A stretch of DNA of 15,494 nt from a virus. The notes beneath the pieces were generated by a model. The model did no database searches, was not told the origin of the DNA, and worked only from the letters and a program-made list of their open reading frames with translations. This document shows, one piece after another, positions 1 to 15,494 of this stretch. A program made the translations under genes and the position numbers. The stretch's first letter is position 1. Every line of letters begins with the position of its first letter. Location of the stretch: the UHGV virus genome UHGV-0123274. One strand, written 5' to 3'.

Positions 1-55
1 CAATTCGAATATTGGTTACGTCTGCATGTGCTATCTGCGCCCATATCATCCAGTG
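1..55. repeat. Left copy of a perfect 55-bp terminal inverted repeat (partner at 15440..15494)
   Basis: Bases 1..55 are the exact reverse complement of 15440..15494; identity stops at base 56 versus 15439. Confidence 0.9.
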
Positions 56-149
56 GTTATAACAGTCGTTGATGTTCTCTGCTTCGATAACCCTGTTGAA
101 TGGCTCTCCATTCCATTCACCTGTGACTCGGAAGTGCATTTATCATCTC

Positions 150-3095: not shown

Positions 3096-4532
3096 TCAGA
3101 ATCCCCCTTTCTTCTTGGACTGCGGTTCCTTGCGTTCACGGCGGCGAATTTCAGCAGACTGTTGGTCTGTGTCATAAATAGCGCCATTTGCCTGAATGCA
3201 ATACACCGTACCGGTATTGCCATGACGATTGAGACGAAGGATTAGTTCGGTTTCACCAGGTGGAACACTGTCATCAAAAGCGCCTTCACGATGGATCCCA
3301 ACCCAATAATCGCAATCCTGTTCAATCTGCCCTGTATCTCGTGAGTCACTTGGTAATGGGCGTTTATTGGTTCGGCTTTCCAGTGCGCGGTTAAGCTGCG
3401 TCAGAAGCACAACAACGCAATCAAGCTCTTTGGCAAGGTTCTTCAGTCCTTTGGTGATCATGCCGTAAGCAAGGTCGTTGCGATCGGCCTTCTCAGCGGT
3501 CATTAGTGTCAGGTAATCGACCAGAATCATGCCAACACATCCTTTTTCTCGCTTGATTCGACGGCTTTCGCTGACGATTTGAGCCAGAGATAATCCCGGC
3601 GTGTCGTCGATGTAAAGCATGTCGATTTCACTCAAGCGATTAGCTGTTTCGATCGCCCTGTTGAAGGCACCATCGTAATCACCCTGATAGCCGTCATCAG
3701 CGTCATTTGTCGCCGGAAGGTAAAAAATATTCGGGTTAACACCAGACTTCTGCCCTACCAGTTTTTCCAGTATCTGATCACCTGGCATTTCAAGGCTGAA
3801 CATCAAAGCGGGCTTTTTCTCATGCACTGCGCAATTGATTGCCATCTGGCTGTATAGCGTCGTTTTCCCCATCTTAGGGCGAGCGCCAATGACAAACAGA
3901 GAGCCTTTCACCAGACCTTTCGGTGACAGCATCCTGTCCAGCGATGGGATCCCTGTGCTCATTCCCCGTTGTTCGCCTGATGGGTCAAATCGCTTCTCAA
4001 GGTCGCTAACCCAGTCTTCCATGACCTCACCAAATGAACGAAGGCCGCGACGCGATCCGGTTTTTGCATGGTCTGTCAGTTGCGTGAAAATCGCCTGAAT
4101 AGCTTCGTACTTCTGCGTTGCAGTCATTCCGTTGCGGGAATAGAGCAATTCCGTCGCTTCAGTCATGCGGTTGATGGCGTAGCGTTCCATTGCGGTTTCA
4201 CGAACCTGCATTGCATAGGCAACGATGTTTGCTGCGCTTGGCGTGTTCTTTGCGATCTCAGCGATATAAGCAAAACCGCCAACAGACGCCGTTAACGATT
4301 TACGCTCCAGTTCATCGAAAAGCGTCAGGCCATCTACTGGCTTTTGCTCCCGGTGCATTCTGGTTATTTCTTCGAAAAGGATTTTGTGTGGTCGGCCGTA
4401 AAATGAATCAGGCTTCAGCATCGCCAGAACTTTCCGGACGCGCTCACTGCTGTCATCATCCAGAAGCAATCCACCAATCACCGCCTGCTCTGCCTCGATG
4501 CTATGGGGCGGCGCATAAAAATTATCGGTCAT
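3096..4532 (-). CDS. DnaB-family replicative DNA helicase
   Basis: 478 aa from ATG at 4532 (GAGGG RBS); Walker A GARPKMGKT and DnaB-like N-terminal region; overlaps the stop of the O-like gene. Confidence 0.9.
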   Translation of the reverse strand: MTDNFYAPPHSIEAEQAVIGGLLLDDDSSERVRKVLAMLKPDSFYGRPHKILFEEITRMHREQKPVDGLTLFDELERKSLTASVGGFAYIAEIAKNTPSAANIVAYAMQVRETAMERYAINRMTEATELLYSRNGMTATQKYEAIQAIFTQLTDHAKTGSRRGLRSFGEVMEDWVSDLEKRFDPSGEQRGMSTGIPSLDRMLSPKGLVKGSLFVIGARPKMGKTTLYSQMAINCAVHEKKPALMFSLEMPGDQILEKLVGQKSGVNPNIFYLPATNDADDGYQGDYDGAFNRAIETANRLSEIDMLYIDDTPGLSLAQIVSESRRIKREKGCVGMILVDYLTLMTAEKADRNDLAYGMITKGLKNLAKELDCVVVLLTQLNRALESRTNKRPLPSDSRDTGQIEQDCDYWVGIHREGAFDDSVPPGETELILRLNRHGNTGTVYCIQANGAIYDTDQQSAEIRRRERKEPQSKKKGGF

Positions 4533-5421
4533 CGTGTTCACCCTCACGAACTTTCAGGTAGGTATTATCGTTAAGCAGGAAATCAAATCCCTTTTTGTGC
4601 CAGACGGTTCCGCGCTGATGGTTTGGGCGCTCTTCGAACATCCATCGGCAATTTTCGCCTACGTAGCTCAAATAATTTCTCCAGTCCTGCATCGTGAAAC
4701 CATGCCCGTCAAGCTGTCGGGTTATCACTCCGGCTTTGCGCCAGAACGTTCGGATCTGGTTTTTACGCTTGTCATTCAGTGCGCGGATTCTTGGCGCTTC
4801 AGGAAGGATTTCGTGGTAAGCATCGACAACATCCTGACAGCTGACGGAAGGTTTTTTCTTGTCAGACTTTTTGTCTGCTGTGGCACTCTCTAATACGTCA
4901 GTATTAGAGATAATATTATTATATTCTTTATCTGTGGTAATTTGCTGGTAATCTGCTGGTACAGTATTGCTTGCAGGCATTGGTATTGCTGGCTTTGAGG
5001 TGGTAATTTGCTGGTAATCTGCTGGTACAAAATTTGACTGATAATCGTCATATTTCTCTACCGAGAAAACTGAGAATTTACCGTGTGAAACCCAGTCAAT
5101 CATGCCGAGTTTTTTGAACTTTCTAAGCAGGTACTGAACGCGATCTGGTTTGAGTCCTGTTTCAAACGCCAGAGTATTTCTACCGCCAAGTAGCTTCCCT
5201 CTGCCTACCAGAATTTCTCCTGCGTCAGTCATTACATACTCAGGCGTATGCTTTGCTTTGAGGATTAAGTGAACCCACAGATGCGCAGTTTCTGCGTCCT
5301 TGTAAAACGGCACATCCATAATTTTACGGTGCAGCAAGGCATACCCCTTACCGCTGCTTTGATGCGGTTGTTGTAGCCTTCTGGCCTCTCTGGCTTCGGC
5401 TAGATTAGATATGTTACTCAT
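4522..5421 (-). CDS. Replication initiator, lambda O-like (contains origin iterons)
   Basis: 299-aa ORF with AAGGAG RBS; sits between cII and helicase; internal tandem peptide [10 protein letters not shown] x2 coded by DNA iterons. Confidence 0.8.
4900..5040. repeat. Origin-like iteron array plus adjacent AT-rich tract inside the O-like gene
   Basis: 30-bp direct repeat gtggtaatttgctggtaatctgctggtaca at 4934..4963 and 5000..5029, built from shorter ggta(a/t)t..gc sub-repeats; AT-rich tract at 4900..4930 downstream in O direction, as in lambda ori. Confidence 0.65.
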
Positions 5422-5560
5422 GACCTTTCTCCTTCTGCATCAGCTTCACTTTTTCCAACTCAGCCCGGAATCGACCAGGCTGCTTGAAGCTGGACAGGAA
5501 GCGATCACGTAGTATGTGTTTGTGAATTTTGTCCTGGTAAGGACTGAGTTGTTTTGTCAT
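5414..5560 (-). CDS. Small 48-aa ORF between cII and O, translationally coupled to O
   Basis: ATG at 5560 preceded by AGGAG 5 nt upstream; product [48 protein letters not shown]; stop overlaps the O start. Not in the ORF track (below its length cutoff). Confidence 0.4.
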
Positions 5561-5594
5561 AATGACTCCTGTTGATAGATCCAGTCTTTCTACA

Positions 5595-5873
5595 TCAGGC
5601 CTCGAAGAATTCGCCGTTCTTCGGGGCTTTTTCTTTTGTCAGCATTCTGGCTACTTTCTTAGCCAGTTCCGCCAACTCCTCGTCTTCAACACCCCATTCA
5701 AGAACAGCCAGAAGCATTCCCATTTTTGGGATGAAGCTGTCTTTCCATCGCGAAATTTGCGATTCATTAATCCCTAACGCGTCGGCAACCTTTCGCTGAC
5801 CACGTACAGCAATTCGATTCAGGATGTTGCTTGTAATTGCATTCGCTTTCTTGCGAGTACTTGTAAGTTGCAT
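5595..5873 (-). CDS. cII: CII transcriptional activator
   Basis: Motifs QISRWK, IPK and [10 protein letters not shown] match lambda CII; true start taken as ATG at 5873 (AAGGA RBS) because the longer track ORF would cover the nutR site. Confidence 0.85.
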
Positions 5874-5930
5874 ATGTAAGTATTTCCTTAACAAATAAGA
5901 AGTTATGCGCATCAAATTATGCGCGTTGTA

Positions 5931-5975
5931 TTCCCGCATTTCGGCGGGAATGAGGACCATGACTGTTAAAGAGCG
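5931..5975 (-). promoter_or_regulatory. nutR-like antitermination site (boxA plus boxB hairpin)
   Basis: Minus strand reads CGCTCTTTAACA (boxA consensus) then hairpin uucccgc-cgaaau-gcgggaa; located directly downstream of cro, as in lambda. Confidence 0.6.
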
Positions 5976-5983
5976 GGTACTGC

Positions 5984-6202
5984 TTAGGCGGCTTTGTTAC
6001 TGGATGGAGGGAAAACATCATCCAAAGAACATTGGCACCCTAACTTCCTGAGGCCTTCTACGATCATTCGGCAATCGTTAAGGCCAGGAGTACGGATATT
6101 CAGCTCATAGTTGGCGATGCGGGATTGCCCCCAACCAATTGCTGAAGCTAGTACAGCTTGCGAAACTCCGATTTTTTTTCGCTGCTGGGCAATTTTGTTC
6201 AT
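5984..6202 (-). CDS. cro: Cro-like repressor (XRE-type helix-turn-helix)
   Basis: 72 aa from ATG at 6202 with AGGGAG RBS; HTH segment IGVSQAVLASAIGWGQSRIANYE; divergent from cI. Confidence 0.8.
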   Translation of the reverse strand: MNKIAQQRKKIGVSQAVLASAIGWGQSRIANYELNIRTPGLNDCRMIVEGLRKLGCQCSLDDVFPPSSNKAA

Positions 6203-6219
6203 TGCGGTCTCCCTAGCAT

Positions 6220-6305
6220 TAATCACACACCCATTACACACAATTTGTGATTAACAGTCAACCTCAATTCGTGTACAGAGTTCAATCACGTTGCGTGTTA
6301 CATTT
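6220..6305. promoter_or_regulatory. oR operator region with pR (minus strand) and presumed pRM (plus strand)
   Basis: pR: -35 TTGACT (6256..6261) with 17-bp spacer and -10 TGTAAT (6233..6238) on minus strand; palindromic CACA..TGTG-type sites, one (acacaatttgtgatt) near-identical to a site in oL. Confidence 0.6.
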
Positions 6306-6310
6306 AAGGG

Positions 6311-6958
6311 ATGAAAACGATGCATGAAATTATCGGGGAAAGGATCAAGTCCCTTAGAGAAGCTAAAGGACTTAGCCAGGCTCAATTGGCCAAGCTTTGC
6401 GGCTGGGCTGCGCCTTCACGCCTGGGGAACTACGAGTTAGGAACAAGAAAGGTTAGCGCGGATGACGCGCTGGTTCTTGGGGCGGCACTCGGCGTATCTC
6501 CGGCAAAAATAATGTTTGGCGAGGATTCAGACGCCGTATTTCGCCAATATGAATACCCGTTATTTTCTTCAGTGCAGGCCGGGCCATTTTCGGAGGTGGG
6601 AAGCTACACAGCCAGCGATGCAAAGGCATGGGTCCCAACGACCACAAAAGCCAGCGAAAAAGCTTTCTGGCTTGAGGTGAAGGGGCATTCAATGACGGCG
6701 CCTCAGGGGGTTCGTCCAAGTTTTCCGGAAGGCATGCTGATACTCGTTGATCCGGCTGAGCCGGTAGAGTCTGGGGATTTCTGCGTGGCTTCTGCAAATG
6801 GTGATTCAGAGGCAACGTTCAAGAAGTATGAGAAGGATGCAGGGGTTAGTTACCTGGTACCTTTAAACCCGGCATATAGAACACTGGATTGCGACCATAG
6901 CTGCCGCATCATAGGCAAGGTAGTTAAGGCGCAGTGGCCTGAAGAGACGTTTGGCTGA
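6311..6958 (+). CDS. cI: CI-type prophage repressor (N-terminal HTH, C-terminal S24 LexA-like autopeptidase domain)
   Basis: 215 aa; [15 protein letters not shown]; Ala-Gly cleavage candidate in VQAGPF; Ser in GHSM and Lys in TFKKY; C-terminus AQWPEETFG resembles lambda cI as recalled. Confidence 0.9.
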
Positions 6959-7108
6959 TCGGCAAGGTGTTCTGGTCGGCGCATAGCTGGTGAAAAAATT
7001 ATTTAATGCGGTGTATTGGCTGATTGTAACCCCATGTAACATCTTGCCGTCACCATTTCGGTGGTTAGATTTTTAATAAAAAAAAACAAATGTATAGCAA
7101 GGTTTTTT

Positions 7109-7588
7109 ATGGATAAAATTAATTACCCACCCCTGTTTGAGCCAGGGTTCCATGACATGGATGAAGCTGGATTAAAATCGTATTGTGTCGATTGCTTTCC
7201 TTCATCATCCAGGCGAGGCATGCTATACTGTAATTTTATACAGCTACTCGAATCTATTCGAGAATTATCTGCTCAATATGGCTGTTTTACAGAAATATGG
7301 GTTGATGGTTCATACACCACGTCTAAACCAGAGCCTGATGATATTGATATTTTGTTGGTATGTGACTATAGCAATATAAACTCAATACCTGTCATGCTTC
7401 GGGGCCGCGTCGATAATTTGCTTGACCGAAACTACATCAAACAAAACTACAAAATTGATGTCCTACTACTCATGAAGAATTTAGATGACCCTAACTATGA
7501 TTATGAGTACTGGCGTAGCTACTGGCGCGGTTGGTTTGGTTTTGATCGCAGTGAAAACCCGAAAGGGTTAGTGAGGATTTTTTTATGA
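7109..7588 (+). CDS. Minimal nucleotidyltransferase-fold protein (Pol-beta superfamily), 159 aa; first gene of rexAB-position cassette
   Basis: Motif VDGSYTTSKPEPDDIDILLV fits the GS-x9-DxD signature (compare LFGSYARG...SDIDLLV in MNT proteins); ATG at 7109 preferred over GTG at 7061; visibly AT-rich. Confidence 0.65.
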   Translation: MDKINYPPLFEPGFHDMDEAGLKSYCVDCFPSSSRRGMLYCNFIQLLESIRELSAQYGCFTEIWVDGSYTTSKPEPDDIDILLVCDYSNINSIPVMLRGRVDNLLDRNYIKQNYKIDVLLLMKNLDDPNYDYEYWRSYWRGWFGFDRSENPKGLVRIFL

Positions 7589-8517
7589 ATGATAAATCAA
7601 TGTTTAAAAATTGCGATAAACGCATTGATTTCATTCAAAAAGAAGTCGATGCAATGAAGCAAAACAAAACCAGGTCCTTTGCTGACATGCTTCTTTATCG
7701 CTCCATGGATTCTCATCTGAGCGATTTGAAGGCCGAAAAATTAAAGCAAGATAGTCGGCACCCACTTATCGATTTTTTTGAGCTGCGGCTGAAAGGCTCT
7801 GAGGTTGACTTTGGCTCTATTCCTTTAGAGCTGCTTGGGGCTATTTCAACAAATCTTGCAGCGCTAATACAAAGAGCAACACACAAAATTGCCTCAGGCA
7901 AGGACTCAAAAAAAGTTCCCTACGACGTGAAAAGCTCCTTAAACCTCAGGCTGGCTGATTTATCCCCTGGGTCTACAAAATTGGGCGTCACCTTCTCTAC
8001 AGGAATAGCAGAATTAGTAGAAACAGTACCCAGCAAGGCTGTAAAAGGCATATTCGATTTGTTGTTAAGCGATGACGACAACAACTTCATGAATCACGTC
8101 GCTGAAATTGGATACAATTCCACTGTAAGCCTTAAGAGAATCGTAGAGGAATGCGATAAACACAACTTAACATTTGATGCAAGTTGGACCGGTCCATTTA
8201 GTAATGGCACCAAGGTGGCAACTATTGACTCCAATAAAATTAAGTACTTGGTGAGTAGACTTACATCAACCATTTCATCCCCTCCCATTACTGAAACGGT
8301 TACAGGCGAACTGGTCGTTCTATCCAAATATGGGAAGCTGGAGCTTGATGTTGGTGGTGAACATTTAAAGGCTTCCTATCCGATTGAAATGCTAGATTTA
8401 ATACAAAAAAAACACAAGGTCGGACAGATTGTTTCTCTTTTAGTGGAGACTACTGAGATTCACAATGATCGCATAGGTCTGTACCGTAAAAACCATCTTG
8501 TTAAATCGGTTCTTTAA
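7585..8517 (+). CDS. Hypothetical 310-aa protein, second gene of rexAB-position cassette; no confident domain
   Basis: ATGA overlap with upstream gene, GAGGA RBS; soluble-looking, no obvious TM segment; AT-rich. Confidence 0.75.
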   Translation: MNDKSMFKNCDKRIDFIQKEVDAMKQNKTRSFADMLLYRSMDSHLSDLKAEKLKQDSRHPLIDFFELRLKGSEVDFGSIPLELLGAISTNLAALIQRATHKIASGKDSKKVPYDVKSSLNLRLADLSPGSTKLGVTFSTGIAELVETVPSKAVKGIFDLLLSDDDNNFMNHVAEIGYNSTVSLKRIVEECDKHNLTFDASWTGPFSNGTKVATIDSNKIKYLVSRLTSTISSPPITETVTGELVVLSKYGKLELDVGGEHLKASYPIEMLDLIQKKHKVGQIVSLLVETTEIHNDRIGLYRKNHLVKSVL

Positions 8518-8524
8518 TATCTCA

Positions 8525-8550
8525 CCCGGCCACCGCGCCGGGTTTTTTAT
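8525..8550 (+). terminator. Intrinsic terminator after the cassette (tImm-like)
   Basis: Hairpin cccggc-caccgc-gccggg followed by tttttt; resembles the lambda terminator after rexB as recalled. Confidence 0.7.
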
Positions 8551-8764
8551 TGTCCGCCGATCACTATCAGGACAGCACCTGCCAGCCGGTCCAAACAATT
8601 GATTAAATTACTATAATTCTTAATACAACTCCCATATCCCGCCATCTCGCCACCACCACCTTCGCTCGTTTTTCGAACTTTTCAGCACCCATCCTGCTGT
8701 TGCCACCGACTTAAGTAAGCAAAACCATCGCGGGTAAAACTATTTACACAAAAAAATCATACAC

Positions 8765-8830
8765 ATAACGTGTCACACCTTTATTTTACACATTTTGTGA
8801 TTGACCATTAAATCACAATATGTGACTATC
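8765..8830 (+). promoter_or_regulatory. oL operator region and pL promoter
   Basis: -35 TTGACC (8801..8806), 17-bp spacer, -10 GACTAT (8824..8829); flanking palindromic sites acacattttgtgatt and tcacaatatgtga; downstream ATCAGCAGGACGC resembles the lambda pL start region as recalled. Confidence 0.6.
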
Positions 8831-8875
8831 ATTTCCATCAGCAGGACGCTGGTAGCCAAACGGAACATATTGGCA

Positions 8876-8917
8876 GGCTCTTTAACATTGATGGGATTGT
8901 CCCGCCGAAATGCGGGA
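8876..8917 (+). promoter_or_regulatory. nutL-like site (boxA plus boxB)
   Basis: GGCTCTTTAACA (boxA-like) then hairpin tcccgc-cgaaat-gcggga; boxB identical to the nutR copy. Confidence 0.6.
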
Positions 8918-9275
8918 ACTGAGTTTAACAAAACAGGAGGTGCCGTAATGGTGCACTAACGCGGTTAGACCGCAGCCGAAAGGCAATGCAGCAGTAATGA
9001 TGCTGCCCCGAGTCGCGTAATGGCGAGCAGGTTTAGCAGACCGATGTGAGGGTAAATAAGGGAACATGCTCCGGAAAGGCAGCGCGAATGCCAGACGCGC
9101 ACCGGTTATCAGCGGCTAATAAGCGACAGAGACTCAAGGGCATGAGCGCGCTCACTGCGAGAGTGTGAGTCAAAGAGTAGTTGGCTTTGGGGTGACGTGA
9201 AGTGCAGCTGCACGACGGCAACCGGAAGATAAGCACCCGGCGCGTCACCGCCAAAGTCAATCATCGGAGGTCAAC

Positions 9276-9548
9276 ATGACAGTAGTCATTACATATCTGG
9301 CTGACGATAACGCCAGAAATCGCCGCAGAGCACGCAGACAGGCTCAACGTGAACAGGCAATGCAAGAGCAGCGACTGGCACGAAAAATTGCGCTAAAGCT
9401 CTCTGGTTGCGTCAGAGCAGATAAAGCAGCATCACTCGGAAGCCTTTGCTGCAAGGAAGAAGATGAACGCAGTGGAAGTATTTGCCTGCCAAACGTAGCC
9501 ATTTACGCGGCAGGATACCGGAAATCAAAACAACTGACAGCGAGGTAA
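9276..9548 (+). CDS. N: N-type antiterminator with arginine-rich motif
   Basis: GGAGG RBS; N-terminal ARM NARNRRRARRQAQREQ; segment ARKIALKLSGCVRADKAASLGS resembles phage 21 N as recalled; first gene after pL/nutL. Confidence 0.7.
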   Translation: MTVVITYLADDNARNRRRARRQAQREQAMQEQRLARKIALKLSGCVRADKAASLGSLCCKEEDERSGSICLPNVAIYAAGYRKSKQLTAR

Positions 9549-9551
9549 GTG

Positions 9552-9776
9552 ATGAATCAGACATACATTCCATCATGCTTGAGAAATCTGCCAAAGCAGA
9601 AAGCAAAGCCCCGCAAGCAAGCCATAAAGGACGCTAAGGCAGAGGTTATTGATCAAGCAATACAATTGCTCAGGGAGGAGTTAAGAAGTGGCAAGCTCGA
9701 AGGAATGATGATGCCCTATCAGCGCGGATATCTATCGGCGATTAGTAAGTTGGAAGTATTGAAGAGTGAATTATGA
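9552..9776 (+). CDS. Hypothetical early-left protein, 74 aa
   Basis: ATG at 9552 with GAGG RBS immediately after the N stop. Confidence 0.5.
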   Translation: MNQTYIPSCLRNLPKQKAKPRKQAIKDAKAEVIDQAIQLLREELRSGKLEGMMMPYQRGYLSAISKLEVLKSEL

Positions 9777-9838
9777 ACTATCTGGAATTTCCGGATGGTT
9801 CATTGTTTTGGCAGCAAACCACTTATTTGAGGTGATAT

Positions 9839-10288
9839 ATGGAAGAACAAGCAAACAAGATTCTCGTAGAACTACTGCAAAAAGCCAGTAATGGAATAGA
9901 CGCGGCTGTTTCATTCAGCCAGGCACAGATTCCTGATGTTGTTCATCAGTTGCTGCTATGGAATATGGTTGACAGTCTGATTAAAACATTAATGGCCATT
10001 CTAACAATCCCACTGGTTTTCTGGTTTATGAAGAAGCAGTGCCAAAGAGTTGAGACAGGTAAAATCGGTGATGAAGGATATTCATGGGAGAAAGGAAATC
10101 CCAAATACATGCCGACAATGGTTTGGGATAGCAAAGGTGATATTAATCTTCTTATCATGCCATTGGTTGTAGTTTTGACTCTGTGGGGGATTTTTATTAT
10201 TGGTGTAGTAACCAATATGACTTGGTTAAAAATTTGGCTGGCCCCAAAGCTTTACCTTATCGAATATGCAGCATCATTGGTTAAGTAA
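9839..10288 (+). CDS. Small membrane protein, 149 aa, two predicted TM helices; possible superinfection-exclusion protein
   Basis: Hydrophobic stretches MAILTIPLVFWFM and LLIMPLVVVLTLWGIFIIGVV; GAGG RBS; followed directly by a terminator; AT-rich. Confidence 0.7.
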   Translation: MEEQANKILVELLQKASNGIDAAVSFSQAQIPDVVHQLLLWNMVDSLIKTLMAILTIPLVFWFMKKQCQRVETGKIGDEGYSWEKGNPKYMPTMVWDSKGDINLLIMPLVVVLTLWGIFIIGVVTNMTWLKIWLAPKLYLIEYAASLVK

Positions 10289-10292
10289 TTTC

Positions 10293-10317
10293 AGGCCGCA
10301 TAGTCGGCCTTTATTTT
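10293..10317 (+). terminator. Intrinsic terminator after the membrane-protein gene
   Basis: Hairpin aggccg-catagt-cggcct followed by ttatttt. Confidence 0.6.
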
Positions 10318-10340
10318 GGGCATAAACAACAGAGGTGAAT

Positions 10341-10628
10341 ATGAAAGAGTTTAAGGGTACGCCTGGTAAATGGAAGTACACGGTTAGAAACGTCAACGAG
10401 ATGATGACTACGTTCCATGGTGTGACGATTGGTGACACATACATTGAAGCAGCAACAAGAAATGAAAGGGAGGATGCGCTACTGATAGCGGCAGCACCTG
10501 ACCTTCTCGAAGCACTTCAGTTATTACTTAAGCAATCCAAAAATAGAACAACGACAACATATCCAGAATGGTATGAAGCTGTTAATAAAGGTCTTGCAGC
10601 AATCAGAAAAGCTCTTGGGGATAAGTAA
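10341..10628 (+). CDS. Hypothetical protein, about 95 aa
   Basis: ATG at 10341 with AGAGG RBS; the track ORF begins at an upstream GTG (10335). Confidence 0.55.
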   Translation: MKEFKGTPGKWKYTVRNVNEMMTTFHGVTIGDTYIEAATRNEREDALLIAAAPDLLEALQLLLKQSKNRTTTTYPEWYEAVNKGLAAIRKALGDK

Positions 10629-10816
10629 TGAAAGTAAAAATAACTGCTTCTAATACCAGTTTTGTTAGTGTTGGTGATATTACAGAAGTAATAACAAACC
10701 ATGATGGAACCCAAGTTATGTGGTCTGATTTTTGTAAAAGATATGAGCGAGTCACTTGGTGTAAACTCGTATGGGGCGTCGAATACGAAGAATTACCTGA
10801 AATGCATGACGAATAA
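10628..10816 (+). CDS. Hypothetical protein, 62 aa
   Basis: Start overlaps the upstream stop by one base (taATG); no recognisable motif. Confidence 0.45.
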   Translation: MKVKITASNTSFVSVGDITEVITNHDGTQVMWSDFCKRYERVTWCKLVWGVEYEELPEMHDE

Positions 10817-10911
10817 GCACTGTGTATTCATTCCAACGAGTGAATACACGGAGCAATGTCGCTCGTAACTAAACAGGAGCCGACTTGTTCTGATTATTGG
10901 AAATCTTCTTT

Positions 10912-10937
10912 GCCCTCCAGTGTGAGGGCTTTTTTAT
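10912..10937 (+). terminator. Intrinsic terminator upstream of cIII
   Basis: Hairpin gccctc-cagtgt-gagggc followed by tttttt. Confidence 0.6.
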
Positions 10938-11001
10938 ATGCATACCAATAACGCTTCACTCGAGGCGTTTTCGTTATGCAATCAAACAGAAGGAGCATCC
11001 T

Positions 11002-11172
11002 ATGCAACAGTTCGCTATTGCAGGGGCGGCATCGGTTCGCCCTTTCAACCCGATTTTATCGGTACAGCATTCACGAAAAAATATTTTAACCGGAGCAGAC
11101 TTTAAACAACCTCGCGTTAAGAGCTTGCTGGATCGTCTTGTTGAGTTTCTGAATCAAAAGGTACAGCCATGA
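11002..11172 (+). CDS. cIII: CIII-like protein (FtsH inhibitor that stabilises CII)
   Basis: 56 aa from ATG at 11002 with AGGAG RBS; MQQFAIAG...KSLLDRLVEFLNQ resembles lambda CIII (MQYAIAG...LIDILNQ) as recalled. Confidence 0.7.
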   Translation: MQQFAIAGAASVRPFNPILSVQHSRKNILTGADFKQPRVKSLLDRLVEFLNQKVQP

Positions 11173-11333
11173 AAAAACCAACTTACGAGGAACTGGAAGA
11201 AGCCCTGAAAGAGCTTAGAAGAATGGCTTTCGCCAGACGCACTAACTCTCACAACTGCGGCCCATTTCAGTACTCGGATTTATGCGAGGACATCATTGAG
11301 GTAACTCAACTGATTAAGGTCGTTAAGCAATGA
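11169..11333 (+). CDS. Small 54-aa ORF in the kil position
   Basis: ATGA overlap with cIII stop; product MKKPTYEELEEALKELRRMAFARRTNSHNCGPFQYSDLCEDIIEVTQLIKVVKQ; not in ORF track. Confidence 0.4.
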   Translation: MKKPTYEELEEALKELRRMAFARRTNSHNCGPFQYSDLCEDIIEVTQLIKVVKQ

Positions 11334-11414
11334 GTATTGCGGATACATGGTCAGACGAAGAATTCATTCGTCAGATGAACAAAATGCTCAATCAGCACAA
11401 AGAACAGGATAAAG

Positions 11415-11726
11415 ATGATGATTCTGACTCTGAATGATAAGCGTGAAATATCGCAAATAATCGCAAGTTTTACTGATGAAGATTACGAACGAATCAACAG
11501 TGAAGTTGATCGCCTCTGCAAACGTTGCGACCCAATAAGCGAAATGCTTCGCTCATATAAACCAGATGAACACACTAAGGACGCTATCGACTGGCTGGAA
11601 GATGATGACTGTAACTATCAGGAAAAAGCCGCTGAATGGTTCTGGGATGCAATAACCGAAAGAGTTAAGGCTGAATATGCCTTCGCAATATTCAAACGCA
11701 GACACATTTTTGGAGAAGCAGCATGA
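11415..11726 (+). CDS. Hypothetical protein, 103 aa, immediately upstream of recT
   Basis: ORF with ATGA coupling to recT at its 3' end; acidic, no recognised motif. Confidence 0.6.
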   Translation: MMILTLNDKREISQIIASFTDEDYERINSEVDRLCKRCDPISEMLRSYKPDEHTKDAIDWLEDDDCNYQEKAAEWFWDAITERVKAEYAFAIFKRRHIFGEAA

Positions 11727-12634
11727 GCAATATCGTTGAATTCGTTAAACAGCAAGAGCAGTTATTCTGCGGAGCATTGACTGAACAGACGGTGACATGG
11801 GCTAAGGAAAGCCAGTTTGCAATTCAGTATTTCCAGAAAAATGATTACCTGGCTAAAACTGCACTGGCAAATCCAACCAGCGCACAGAACGCCATCATCA
11901 ATGTTGCGGCGATCGGCATCACCTTAAACCCGGCTAGCAAACTGGCTTATCTGGTTCCGCGCGACGGCATGGTGTGCCTTGATATCAGCTATATGGGATT
12001 ACTACATATTGCAATGGAGTCTGGTGTTATCTCATGGGGTCAGGCAAAGCTTGTTCATGCTAACGATACTTATGAGTCAAACGGACTTGATAAAGCACCA
12101 ACCCATAAATACAACGCCTTCGGTGATCGTGGCGATATCGTTGGTGTTTACTGCACAGTTAAGACGCCAGCAGGTGATTATCTAACGGAAGAGATGAGTC
12201 TGGCTGAAATTGAGGCTGTAAGGAAAACAAGCAAGGCGGCATTCAGCGATAAAGGACCATGGGTAAATCACTGGAATGAGATGGCGCGAAAGACGGTCGT
12301 AAAGCGTGCAAGCAAGTATTGGCCTAAGGCATCACGTCTTGATAGTGCTATTCACGTACTAAACGAAGAAGAAGGTGTATGGACTGAACCAGTTATGCCG
12401 CACAAATCAGAGGAAGATATCCGCGAAGATGAACGGAAACGCCAGCAGGAAATAACGGATAAAGCACAACTTCTTTGTGATGAAATGGCTCAGGCTGAAA
12501 ACATGGATGATTTGAAGAGATATTTTGCAGAAGCATATCGCCTGACATCTGGAATGAAATTGCAGCAGAACATACAAGCCATTTACATAGAATGCAAAGC
12601 GAAACTGGAGGTTGCCAGTGAGCAAACTATATGA
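11723..12634 (+). CDS. recT: RecT-family single-strand annealing protein
   Basis: 303 aa; segment GPWVNHWNEMARKTVVKRASKYWP matches the conserved RecT core (GPWVTHWEEMAKKTAIRRLFKYLP as recalled); GGAGAAG RBS. Confidence 0.9.
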   Translation: MSNIVEFVKQQEQLFCGALTEQTVTWAKESQFAIQYFQKNDYLAKTALANPTSAQNAIINVAAIGITLNPASKLAYLVPRDGMVCLDISYMGLLHIAMESGVISWGQAKLVHANDTYESNGLDKAPTHKYNAFGDRGDIVGVYCTVKTPAGDYLTEEMSLAEIEAVRKTSKAAFSDKGPWVNHWNEMARKTVVKRASKYWPKASRLDSAIHVLNEEEGVWTEPVMPHKSEEDIREDERKRQQEITDKAQLLCDEMAQAENMDDLKRYFAEAYRLTSGMKLQQNIQAIYIECKAKLEVASEQTI

Positions 12635-13100
12635 AATTGCCAATGAATACGCAAAATTGATGGATTCAGATTTAGAACCAGAGATGATTGCTGACACAAT
12701 AGAAGGCATGGAAGGAGAATTTACCGATAAAATAGAACAACTTCTTTCCGTCATTAAAAATGAATCTGGTTATGCCGAACGCCTCAAGGAAGAGGCAAAG
12801 TCACTGAATGAGCGAGCCGCAGTAATTCAAAATAAGATTGACAGCATCAAATCATATATAGCGTCATCGCTTGAAATGGTTGGCAAGAAAAATATTCGAG
12901 CAGGTATTCACCAGGTAACAATCCGCAAACCGTCAGAAATTGTAGAAATAATCGACTCAAGCGCCCTTCCTCCTGAATACGTTGAGTTTGAAACGACAAT
13001 TAAAGCCGACAAACTGGCAATCAAGCACCAACTAAAAGCAGGAATAAATATTCCCGGTGCTCAACTCAAGGTTGGGGAACCTTCACTTCTTATCAAATAA
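12618..13100 (+). CDS. Recombination-module partner protein, about 160 aa, possibly Gp157-family (tentative)
   Basis: GTG at 12618 preceded by GGAGG; overlaps recT 3' end; coiled-coil-like composition; family call from memory only. Confidence 0.55.
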   Translation: MSKLYEIANEYAKLMDSDLEPEMIADTIEGMEGEFTDKIEQLLSVIKNESGYAERLKEEAKSLNERAAVIQNKIDSIKSYIASSLEMVGKKNIRAGIHQVTIRKPSEIVEIIDSSALPPEYVEFETTIKADKLAIKHQLKAGINIPGAQLKVGEPSLLIK

Positions 13101-13111
13101 CGGTATCGCCT

Positions 13112-13426
13112 ATGAAAAAGACTCCATGGGAGAAATGGGAAGTCGATTTCTTGCGCGAAGTATCGGCGACAATGCCAGTTGAAGTTATTGCTGAAAAACT
13201 GGAAAGGACTGAAAAATCAGTTATGGCGAAAGCAACAAGGATTGGCGCTGACATTGTTAGCCGACTTCGTGGAAGACGCTGGACAAGAGCCGAAGTATCA
13301 CTTTTCGGTAAGTTCTCCGCAGAAGAAATAGCAATTGCAACCTGCCGCTCAATTTATTCAGTAAGAGCTATGCGATACAAGCTAAAAAAACTCGATGAAG
13401 AAAGAGCAGGCATACGAATAAATTAA
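13112..13426 (+). CDS. Hypothetical protein, 104 aa
   Basis: Intact ORF in operon orientation; basic, possibly DNA-binding; no confident motif. Confidence 0.6.
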   Translation: MKKTPWEKWEVDFLREVSATMPVEVIAEKLERTEKSVMAKATRIGADIVSRLRGRRWTRAEVSLFGKFSAEEIAIATCRSIYSVRAMRYKLKKLDEERAGIRIN

Positions 13427-13442
13427 CATGGAGTAATTAACA

Positions 13443-13724
13443 ATGAAGCTAAACATCGACCTCGGAAAATACGTTATTACCGGAACCAAACACGATCTGA
13501 TTCTTAGCGAAAGAGGAATTATCAAAGAAGGCGAGAATGCAGGGAAAGAAACACTAAGTCGTATCGGTTATTACAGCAAGTTTGAGCATCTGGTCAAAGA
13601 GTTATGCAACCGTGAAATCCTGTTATCTCAGGCGCAGACGCTACAGGATATTCAGCAACATATCGAGACTTTAGCTGTGTCACTTAGCATGGCCGTTGAC
13701 CAGTTCGTGGAGAGTAAATCATGA
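13443..13724 (+). CDS. Hypothetical protein, 93 aa
   Basis: Intact ORF; coupled to the next small ORF via ATGA. Confidence 0.6.
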
Positions 13725-13885
13725 GAGGTCTTGCATACAATCCCGGCATTCTTCCGGCAGAAATGATTATTCGCCAACGCGTAAAGCCAATGCCATCGAG
13801 AGAGGAATTGCTTAAGAGAAATTCTTTTCCATCAGTGAATCAAAACAAGTATCTGAATGCGATGTTGCGGAGTGGGAAGAAATGA
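13721..13885 (+). CDS. Small 54-aa ORF bridging two coupled genes
   Basis: ATGA overlaps at both ends (13721 and 13882); not in ORF track. Confidence 0.4.
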
Positions 13886-14580
13886 AACAAATGACACTAA
13901 TTGAGATGGATGGATTTCTGAAAGGTAAATGCATCCCACGAGATTTAAAGGTTAACGAAACAAACGCTGAATATCTGGTGCGTAAATTTGCTGAGATTGA
14001 ATCAAAACTGGAAACGGCGTTGCGGGAGTGTCGTTCTGCTGGAATAACGATTGATAACCTTGAGGCCAAGTGCGCAGCGCTGGCTGCTGATAACAAGAAA
14101 GCAATGGAGGCAATGAGGCAGGCAGATGCAGCCGTTAAGTTGGCACACGAGAAGTTTTCGGCGCTGACTGCGGAGAATGCGGGGATGAAGGCGACATGTG
14201 AGGACCGTCGAACGTTCATTATGAACGGTGTGCAACTGGGTTATATCAAGGTTCCTACAGTAGATACAGACCCGGCACTTGATACCATTCGTGTTGCTGT
14301 ATCACCACAAGAACCAACCCCAGCCACCGACGCTTTCTTGGCTGAAGTGAAGACTGAAGCACGCAAGGAGGGCGCTTACTTTGTTGCGAACAGAATGCTG
14401 GCTGCCTGGGAAGCTGGTTTTATTGATGATACTGCGAAGAACGCCGCTGATATTGCCCGGATGATTCTTACCTCTACTGAGTTTATGGCTAATGCGCCGG
14501 AAGGCGATTTTGACCGCTCATTCTCTGATGGCGTACTCGAAGACATCGCTGCCCAGCTTCGCAAAGGAGTGCAGTCATGA
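13882..14580 (+). CDS. Hypothetical coiled-coil protein, 232 aa (possibly Ea22-like; low confidence)
   Basis: Alanine- and charge-rich helical composition; translational coupling on both sides. Confidence 0.7.
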
Positions 14581-14837
14581 GCATTCTTGAAATTCTAAAC
14601 ACTGGCCTCGCTCTGATGGGGTGGTTATTCATCATGTTCAAAACGGGCCAGTGGTTTATCTCCATTGCGCTAAAGCAGTGGGATAAGCGTAGAAAGCTAT
14701 CTCGTAGACAGAAGGCAGTAAACGAATTTTACGATGCGTTTGACCTGTCCAGCATCGAACCAGGAACAACGGTGCGCCTGGCGACTAAAGGCGATCTGAC
14801 AATCATGATGTATCGCACAGAAGGATCCGCCCAATGA
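14577..14837 (+). CDS. Small single-pass membrane protein, 86 aa
   Basis: AAGGAG RBS, ATGA coupling; hydrophobic segment LALMGWLFIMF near the N-terminus. Confidence 0.6.
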   Translation: MSILEILNTGLALMGWLFIMFKTGQWFISIALKQWDKRRKLSRRQKAVNEFYDAFDLSSIEPGTTVRLATKGDLTIMMYRTEGSAQ

Positions 14838-15433
14838 GCAACATCAACAAACAGGCGCTGCGTGGTCAGAGCGTCGAAGGTTCGTATTACCTGGCAGAAT
14901 GTGGTCATTGTGGCGAGATGTACCCAAGTAACAAGCTGGATGGAGGTGAGTCGCTATTTTCCGGCGATTACGGTGAATGCTTCTGCCACCTCTGTGGCGC
15001 TGATGATTCTGATATTGCAGATAACGGCGCGTGGGGTTCTGAGGCTGTAACAGCATGGAATTATCAGCAGAAGCGTATCGAAGCGCTGCTGGATGAGAAC
15101 TACAGGCTGACTGCGGAGCGTGATGCTCTGCGAGAAAACATAGGCGGTGACAACACCCGTGCAGCTGCTGATATTTACTTCCAACTGGTCGAGGAGTGCG
15201 AAATTCCTGCTGGCGGATCTCTGGTCGAATACGTTGATGATATGCGCGAGAAGCTGGAAGCCGCAGAGAAGCGCATTGCAGAACTGGAAGCACGGGAAAT
15301 ATCGCTCCCAGAACGTAGCAGCATGCTTCATCGAACAGATTTCCACGAGGATTACCAAACGGTAATGGCATACAAAGTTTCTGAAGTCATCGCTGCAATC
15401 CGCGCTGCAGGCATTCGCATCAAAGGAGAGTGA
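14834..15433 (+). CDS. Hypothetical protein, 199 aa, with N-terminal Cys/His cluster (putative zinc ribbon) and coiled-coil C-terminus
   Basis: ATGA coupling to upstream gene; CGHCG...CFCHLCG motif; preferred over the long antisense ORFs because of operon context. Confidence 0.7.
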   Translation: MSNINKQALRGQSVEGSYYLAECGHCGEMYPSNKLDGGESLFSGDYGECFCHLCGADDSDIADNGAWGSEAVTAWNYQQKRIEALLDENYRLTAERDALRENIGGDNTRAAADIYFQLVEECEIPAGGSLVEYVDDMREKLEAAEKRIAELEAREISLPERSSMLHRTDFHEDYQTVMAYKVSEVIAAIRAAGIRIKGE

Positions 15434-15439
15434 TATGAG

Positions 15440-15494
15440 CACTGGATGATATGGGCGCAGATAGCACATGCAGACGTAACCAATATTCGAATTG
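15440..15494. repeat. Right copy of the perfect 55-bp terminal inverted repeat
   Basis: Exact reverse complement of 1..55; begins 6 nt after the stop of the last plus-strand gene. Confidence 0.9.

Follow-up and report, generated by a model that had tools for sequence, protein, structure and literature searches.

Do six small genes in a row at the end of a phage early operon form one functional system, or are they separate genes that share a transcript? The question is raised by positions 13112-15433 of the virus genome UHGV-0123274, which was analyzed as one stretch of 15,494 nucleotides (nt), called the window here. A preliminary description made from the letters of this DNA had presented the block as a chain of six translationally coupled, unknown genes. 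The answer reached here is that the block is a newly combined, ordinary set of known cassettes at the distal end of a pL operon. It is likely the distal ea part of that operon and consists of six independent, exchangeable cassettes rather than the components of one machine. The six genes (g1-g6), all with intact reading frames on the + strand, and the overlaps between them as read from the sequence are as follows.

13112-13426, + strand: g1, 104 amino acids (aa); two tandem helix-turn-helix (HTH) repeats, in an Abc1-like slot just after the recombination module
13443-13724, + strand: g2, 93 aa; DUF5405 family
13721-13885, + strand: g3, 54 aa; DUF2737 family
13882-14580, + strand: g4, 232 aa; EaE/Oad2-family mosaic
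14577-14837, + strand: g5, 86 aa; DUF4752, with a hydrophobic N-terminus, a basic stretch and a soluble tail of ~45 aa
14834-15433, + strand: g6, 199 aa; Ead/Ea22-like, with a zinc-ribbon head, a helical stalk and a small C-terminal module
13721-13724, + strand: ATGA overlap of g2 and g3
13882-13885, + strand: ATGA overlap of g3 and g4
14577-14580, + strand: ATGA overlap of g4 and g5
14834-14837, + strand: ATGA overlap of g5 and g6

The block is a new combination of known cassettes

Of the 5,426 complete E. coli genomes searched by megablast with region 13000-15494, 2,863 contained pieces of it, as did 345 phage records. At least 80% of the region was covered by none of the phage records and by none of the 5,426 genomes, and the best-covering phage, HK140, reached 52%. 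The genes next to each homologue vary in every related phage, and alignments with relatives reveal module swaps inside g4 and g6. The lack of any record covering at least 80% of the block, together with these swaps, argues for exchangeable cassettes. The modules recombine independently, and no coherent six-gene unit is apparent in the comparisons, so the chain does not stand as a unit. The short conserved gene ends and the fixed 4-nt junctions look like joints for cassette exchange, which agrees with the well-known mosaicism of lambdoid phages.

A Pfam or PHROG family was assigned to each of g1-g6, g1 and g4 by PHROG only. Homologues of the block products are P22 EaE and orf56, HK620 hkaG, hkaH and hkaI, HK97 gp37 and gp38, and the lambda Ea22/P22 EaD family. 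The term "unknown" in the preliminary description is thus incorrect: every gene has been placed in a family, and for g4 and g6 the databases contain proteins with 100% identity. Its statement that no function could be assigned is right in the strict sense, but all six products match known families. It had also placed the block in an Ea-like accessory region beyond the recombination genes; this location is correct, with RecT and a Gp157/Mu-Gam-like gene directly upstream and homologues in P22, HK620, HK97 and lambda. The comparison with the ea regions of relatives that it had suggested finds the same slots and families, and 4-nt overlaps in HK140, P22, HK620, HK446 and HK75. Its view of such regions as a reservoir of host-takeover genes is right in kind. 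The EaE family includes Oad2, and counter-defence phenotypes have been reported for Abc1. The arrangement is one more in a well-known mosaic region; its families are already in Pfam and PHROGs and its proteins in public databases.

Other searches gave no matches. A sequence search of the PDB returned no meaningful match to a solved structure for any of g1-g6, and no NCBIfam model matched them. Nothing was found below E = 0.01 with the PADLOC defence models; g4 and g6 gave noise at E >= 0.01 and the other four genes gave no match. N-terminal peptides of g1-g5 were not found in the accessory-gene supplements of Silas et al.

Overlapping starts are ordinary operon packing

Four junctions (g2/g3, g3/g4, g4/g5 and g5/g6) have overlapping stop and start codons, exactly where the preliminary description had read ATGA between the genes at 13443, 13721, 13882, 14577 and 14834. 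Coupling of six genes holds for the five from g2 to g6; g1 is outside the chain, with an 11-nt gap after the Gp157 gene and a 16-nt gap to g2. A GGAG/AGGA(G) Shine-Dalgarno (SD)-like motif starts 12-13 nt 5' of each of the four overlapped starts, and the g1 start has none. Since every overlapped downstream gene has its own motif, independent initiation is possible.

Such junctions are not confined to the block. ATGA overlaps occur upstream in the same prophage between 11415-11726 and 11723-12634 and between 7061-7588 and 7585-8517, and the Gp157 gene, which starts at 12612, shares 23 nt with the RecT gene. In both early operons, that on the - strand included, overlaps of 1 to 26 nt are found at most other same-strand junctions. 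The annotated ea regions of HK140, P22, HK620, HK446 and HK75 likewise have 4-nt overlaps. The ATGA chain is the ordinary packing of such operons and does not mark a distinctive unit.

g4 is a chimera of EaE/Oad2-family modules

g4 matched phrog_614 at 1e-82 and phrog_14548 at 4e-85, the same two PHROGs that hold P22 EaE, and no Pfam family. We know of no function for P22 EaE. BLASTP aligned g4 with HK446 gp27 at 2e-51, with 55% identity over 161 aa, and residues 1-70 of the two proteins are almost identical. In tblastn searches of reference phages, residues 1-93 were 72-77% identical to HK620 hkaH and HK140 gp36, and residues 146-232 were 90% identical to P22 EaE. The parts of g4 are an Oad2-type N-module (residues 1-70), a long helix, an extra middle module (~72-145), an 11-residue hinge and a P22-EaE-type C-module. 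Its relatives have the N-module, the hinge and a QLRKG end in common, and whole blocks between these differ. The AlphaFold2 (AF2) model of g4 contains a long helix at residues 57-119 with a predicted local distance difference test (pLDDT) score of 85-92, which fits the earlier description of the 232-aa product as a coiled-coil protein. A search of a viral fold library with this model, which is weak in its globular parts, gave nothing below E = 0.1. g4 is 100% identical to a database "hypothetical protein" (P0121) present on 63 contigs.

The two halves of g4 point to different relatives. Its C-terminal 87 residues are those 90% identical to P22 EaE, and it has the same position relative to the orf56/DUF2737 gene as EaE has, whereas the N-terminal 60% is of the hkaH/gp37/Oad2 type, shared with HK97 gp37 and HK620 hkaH, and not of the P22 type. 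HK446 gp27 is Oad2 (OLD anti-defence 2), which rescues cells from the P2 OLD abortive nuclease (bioRxiv 10.64898/2026.07.10.737580). Oad2 binds OLD directly, blocks the tetramer but not dimeric mutants, and acts alone when cloned; its relatives include P22 EaE, and fusions with HNH or EaD/Ea22 proteins occur in some cases (bioRxiv 10.64898/2026.07.10.737580). The gene order in HK446 is abc2, gp29 (DUF5405), gp28 (DUF2737), gp27 and xis, a slot equal to g2-g3-g4. g4 occupies this slot after the DUF5405 and DUF2737 genes with a 4-nt overlap, and has the same hinge and the same QLRKG end. As is typical of the EaE/Oad2 family, it lies directly downstream of, and overlaps, the DUF2737 gene in the pL operon. 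It differs from Oad2 in its extra middle module and in having the P22-EaE-type C-module instead: g4 and gp27 diverge after residue ~70, and the C-terminal, presumably specificity-determining module of g4 is not that of Oad2.

The HK75 homologue, 54% identical to Oad2, does not inhibit OLD (bioRxiv 10.64898/2026.07.10.737580). HK75 gp28 and Oad2 have a nearly identical N-module and diverge after residue ~72. Because the two proteins share this module yet differ in OLD inhibition, we infer that the C-terminal part sets specificity and that the EaE/Oad2 N-module is a common scaffold. With its extra middle module and P22-EaE-type C-module, g4 is an EaE/Oad2-family member whose target is probably other than P2 OLD. 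As a natural chimera of an Oad2-type scaffold and a P22-EaE-type C-module, it could help to map the part that sets specificity and is the most useful lead in the block.

A more specific proposal goes beyond this, and we put it forward as tentative and somewhat unlikely. g4 would be a new-specificity Oad2/EaE member that directly inhibits a different OLD-family nuclease, a related defence nuclease of the ABC-ATPase/TOPRIM kind or another sensor of RecBCD blockage, and would be kept beside a Mu-Gam-like trigger. The g6 head would be an undescribed target-binding module swapped onto an Ea22 stalk in the same arms race.

RecBCD inhibitors trigger OLD (bioRxiv 10.64898/2026.07.10.737580), and by analogy the Mu-Gam-like protein encoded upstream of the block is a plausible OLD trigger of the RecBCD-inhibitor type.

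g6 carries a zinc-ribbon head on an Ea22-type stalk

g6 is 100% identical to a database "ead/Ea22-like family protein" (P0001) on 84 contigs. It passes the Pfam Ead_Ea22 (PF13935) cut-off of 27 bits marginally, at 28.6 bits, and matched phrog_250 at 1.7e-23 over profile range 72-240, the same range as lambda Ea22 and P22 EaD. The protein starts with MSNINKQALR and ends with GIRIKGE. Its BLASTP alignment with lambda Ea22 is restricted to the first 10 and last 16 residues, and with P22 EaD it has the first 10 residues in common. Residues 92-199 are 91% identical to HK620 hkaG (tblastn). The AF2 model (pLDDT 64) has helices at residues 62-104, 107-122 and 130-153 and a beta-beta-alpha unit at 163-191, with the head below pLDDT 50. 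The three-part build of Ea22-type proteins (short N-terminus, central coiled coil and separate C-terminal domain (CTD)) is recognizable in g6 as an AF2 prediction. A fold search of the PDB with this model, which is weak in its globular parts, gave nothing below E = 0.1. The PDB sequence search for a CTD of the type solved for lambda Ea22 (nuclear magnetic resonance fold) gave no Ea22 match at E <= 1.

Lambda Ea22 is a pro-lysogenic tetramer built of a variable head, a coiled coil and a variable CTD (PMC10834534; PMC7093339), and the CTD varies among homologues (PMC10834534). g6 resembles lambda Ea22 and P22 EaD in its MSxINxQALR start, central helical stalk and place as the last large gene before xis, and it shares the GIRIKGE end with lambda Ea22. 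Lambda Ea22 differs in lacking the four-Cys zinc-ribbon head, and the C-terminal module of g6 is of the HK620 hkaG type, with no sequence match to the solved Ea22 CTD. The head is encoded as follows.

14864-15097, + strand: residues 11-88 of g6, the four-Cys zinc-ribbon head; a CxxC...CxxC pattern and then an AWNxQQ helix leading into the stalk

The CGHCG...CFCHLCG cluster that had been noted in the 199-aa product is present. Among 34 diverse relatives, residues C23, C26, S32, C51 and C54 of the head are invariant, W75, Q78, Q79 and I82 are nearly so, and C49 is not conserved; a CxxC...CxxC zinc ribbon follows from the invariance of the four Cys without C49. An exhaustive HMMER search with residues 10-88 recovered 149 representative clusters at 50% identity. 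Heads of this type are nearly always N-terminal in proteins of 130-350 aa. The head hardly varies, whereas many unrelated stalks and tails follow it, almost all of them ending in GI(G/R)(V/I)KGE, and so it behaves as a separately shuffling module. The head matched no Pfam family at its cut-off, and its profile retrieved only generic Cys knuckles from the PDB; zinc-ribbon heads on Ea22-type stalks are without a family model of their own. The relative P0020, which has the same head, is Cys-rich a second time in its middle part (CAGCG...CPNGCG; alignment columns ~170-230). Zinc-ribbon units may have been added repeatedly to the Ea22-type scaffold.

Another reading makes g6 a fusion of a Lar-type restriction-alleviation protein with an Ea22 stalk, and anti-restriction the main job of the block; it is quite unlikely. 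The sole Pfam match of the head is Lar_restr_allev (PF14354), over profile positions 3-55 of 58 at E = 0.032, but its 14.9 bits fall below the cut-off of 28.6. g6 matched phrog_599 "Lar-like" at E = 0.005, an AWN motif follows the second Cys knuckle as in Lar, and prophage MB53 has a separate Lar gene directly before its Ea22-like gene. Lar matches at E <= 1, however, were weak and occurred in 10 of the 34 head-family members, HypA was matched in 16, and many members matched generic zinc-ribbon families. Comparison of the head with true Lar (hhalign) gave a probability of 14% with the wrong knuckle aligned, and the generic knuckles returned by the PDB profile search also argue against a specific relationship. 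Lar membership was rejected for the head, and the generic zinc ribbon was kept.

g1 is a two-HTH protein in the Abc1 slot

g1 is made up of a duplicated HTH unit, W-x2-E ... EIA ... RS..SV..R..L. In longer relatives the unit occurs three times, and these proteins match Pfam Sigma70_r4_2 (PF08281), a family that P22 Abc1 also matches (27 bits; cut-off 25.7). phrog_323 was matched by g1 at 1.7e-19 and by P22 Abc1 at 1.3e-23, over profile ranges that partly differ (145-269 and 93-190). g1 itself has no Pfam family and is 97-98% identical to HK140 gp39 and a Gally protein (tblastn). According to a preprint, Abc1 contains an HTH domain, has counter-defence phenotypes, sensitises several wild hosts to phage and triggers P4-dependent cell death (bioRxiv 10.1101/2023.04.06.535777).

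g1 has the same slot as P22 Abc1, just after the recombination/anti-RecBCD genes, and a similar length (104 and 94 aa), and both have two HTH repeats of the Sigma70_r4/Myb type and belong to PHROG 323. The two proteins show no pairwise similarity, and their neighbours differ: Erf and Abc2 in the case of Abc1, RecT and a Mu-Gam-like protein in that of g1. "Abc1-like" is a reasonable description of the build and place of g1 and does not amount to proven orthology. The annotation "Anti-RecBCD protein 1, similar to P22 Abc1" of the 98% identical homologue in phage Gally (OV696608) was not adopted, as there is no pairwise similarity to Abc1. That label seems to derive from position and, at best, remote homology.

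g2, g3 and g5 are small members of conserved families

g2 matched Pfam DUF5405 at 25.7 bits (cut-off 21.6) and phrog_154 at 6e-31, and is 98% identical to HK446 gp29 and to HK140 gp38. The phrog_154 label "replication initiation protein" is an unverified name without independent support and was not carried over to g2.

g3 matched Pfam DUF2737 at 3.4e-32 (110.5 bits; cut-off 25), and is 98% identical to HK620 hkaI and 77% identical to P22 orf56 (tblastn). In HK140, P22, HK620, HK446, HK75 and here, the gene that directly follows and overlaps the DUF2737 gene is always of the EaE/Oad2 type, and this pairing persists though the surrounding genes differ. It is the block's only hint of a fixed partnership, and it is weakened by the fact that cloned Oad2 acts alone.

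g5 matched Pfam DUF4752 at 1.4e-41 (140.8 bits; cut-off 27). The earlier description of this 86-aa product as a single-pass membrane protein agrees with its one strongly hydrophobic N-terminal stretch, where the Kyte-Doolittle 19-residue maximum is 1.81 (residues 3-21); the KRRK-rich segment KQWDKRRKLSRRQK follows. Among phage records, 141 contain a DUF4752 homologue; they belong to P22-like, Stx, Klebsiella and Erwinia phages, and no homologue has a functional name.

Operon and prophage context

The window covers the early region of a mosaic lambdoid E. coli prophage. Its - strand carries a pR-type operon of Cro-like, CII-like, O-like and DnaB-like genes followed by NinB, HNH, Dam and NinX. 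The + strand features that frame the block are as follows.

6311-6958, + strand: cI-type repressor
9276-9548, + strand: N-type antiterminator (Pfam N_peptide, 5.1e-15), at the start of the pL operon to which the block belongs
11723-12634, + strand: RecT (Pfam RecT, 2.9e-32)
12612-13100, + strand: Gp157/Mu-Gam-like end-binding protein (Pfam Sipho_Gp157, 2.7e-37; phrog_253 "Mu Gam-like end protection")
15428-15494, + strand: right arm of a terminal inverted repeat and start of a 25-aa remnant open reading frame (ORF)

Several small genes lie between the N-type antiterminator and RecT. The cI-like repressor, N_peptide, RecT and Gp157 genes upstream on the same strand are the grounds for placing the block in a pL operon. 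In region 11000-15494, promoter-like sites were not in excess (4 versus 7.2 ± 3.0 in shuffles) and terminator-like sites were not significantly so (7 versus 4.1 ± 2.1). An Rfam scan of the window found no RNA family at gathering scores.

Contigs 100% identical to window positions 4834-15494 extend past g6, with the 25-codon remnant ORF and then an intrinsic terminator. The terminator is AAGCCGCCTGATGGCGGTTT followed by TTTATT and lies 19 nt past the window end, ~80 nt after g6. Its closeness behind g6 indicates that g6 is the last substantial gene of the transcription unit. Next in these contigs (L009, 10600-11140) comes an AlpA/Xis-like gene of 66 aa, to which the host genes dsdC-dsdXA-emrYK-evgAS are directly joined. 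The dsdC junction has neither an integrase nor a tRNA gene, and the prophage arm beyond g6 looks truncated.

The block has the same place as the exo-xis region of lambda (orf60a, orf63, orf61, orf73, ea22, ea8.5), between the recombination genes and xis. The lambda genes are small, early, pL-driven and non-essential, and influence both the physiology of the host and the choice between lysis and lysogeny (PMC10834534, PMC7093339). The two regions differ in content, as only the Ea22 family has a homologue in the block (tblastn).

The end of the arm in the identical contigs, with an AlpA/Xis-like gene and then host dsdC and without integrase or tRNA gene, could also suggest that g1-g6 are decaying, inactive cargo of a defective prophage. 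The genes themselves make this improbable. The reading frames of all six genes are intact, and all but g1 have SD-like motifs; 100% identical copies of g4 and g6 occur on 63 and 84 contigs, respectively; and residues invariant in the families are retained in the block products. Prophage MB53 has a truncated DUF4752 pseudogene at the equivalent position, and such decay is not seen in the block.

It is very unlikely that the six genes are one dedicated multi-component system (exclusion, defence or toxin-antitoxin-like) in which the ATGA chain meets a stoichiometric need: four ATGA overlaps in succession, the identical block on several independent contigs and the DUF2737/EaE-type pairing kept in six phages would fit such a system, but the block is not conserved as a unit and its neighbours vary in each related phage, g4 and g6 are each put together from modules that also occur elsewhere, PADLOC gave no match for the block below E = 0.01, Oad2 acts alone when cloned, and ATGA-type overlaps are common throughout the operon.

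Proposed mode of action of the cassettes

For independent cassettes at the end of a pL operon, the gene order and the biology of lambda suggest the following scheme. Transcription would start at pL once the cI-type repressor is lost. The N-type antiterminator would carry it through RecT and the Mu-Gam-like Gp157 gene and then through g1-g6, and it would end at the intrinsic terminator behind g6. The ATGA overlaps and the genes' own SD motifs would give compact, roughly coordinated translation. The alignments suggest that modules are swapped at the short conserved gene ends.

The relatives suggest what the products may do. g4 probably binds, as a helical oligomer, a defence protein of the host or of a prophage and inactivates it; its N-module would be the scaffold and its P22-EaE-type C-module would set the target. 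g1 would be an Abc1-like DNA-binding protein with two HTH units that alters transcription of the host or of resident elements. g6 would form an Ea22/EaD-type coiled-coil oligomer that presents the zinc-ribbon head to a partner, and may bias the lysis-lysogeny decision like lambda Ea22. g5 is predicted to be a small inner-membrane protein, and g2 and g3 may be small conserved partners. The block offers candidates for the study of phage counter-defence.

Several points weigh against this interpretation. The roles proposed for g1-g6 are all analogies. BLASTP gave no alignment of g1 with P22 Abc1 at E <= 100, the profile-sequence comparison of the two (hhalign) gave a probability of 8%, and the link between them comes down to a common PHROG and HTH type. 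g4 is unlike Oad2 across its entire C-terminal half, and even a closer homologue of Oad2, that of HK75, is inactive on OLD. The AF2 models of g6 and g4 are mediocre (pLDDT 64 and 68, respectively), and the C-module of g4 and the zinc-ribbon head of g6 score below 50-55. As the prophage arm appears truncated and has no integrase, expression in a productive cycle is not assured.

Other features of the window

Window positions 1-67 and 15428-15494 are inverted copies of 67 nt with 94% identity, and the outermost 55 nt are exact. This looks as if the contig had been broken at a repeat, and assemblers commonly use a k-mer size of 55. The terminal repeat is the tail of a lambda orf55-like remnant that is found behind both the nin-side and the ea-side genes.

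An ATGA-overlapped pair of genes (7061-7588 and 7585-8517, + strand) comes right after the cI-type repressor gene, at the place of rexAB. The pair matched the PADLOC candidate system PDC-M63 (A at 2.4e-41, B at 7.5e-45), and the first protein belongs to Pfam DUF6932. The genes at 7061-8517 are likely a prophage-encoded candidate defence pair expressed in the lysogen.

At 4934-5034, within the O-like replication gene (- strand, 4522-5421), a direct repeat of ~35 nt built of GTGGTAATTTGCTGGTAATCTGCTGGTAC units occurs three times. Probably these are iterons of the replication origin, which in lambda too lies within the initiator gene.

A 149-aa protein with hydrophobic stretches is encoded at 9839-10288 (+ strand), between N and the recombination genes, and matched no Pfam or PADLOC family. 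Its gene has roughly the place of the SieB-type exclusion genes of other lambdoid phages, although on the opposite strand.

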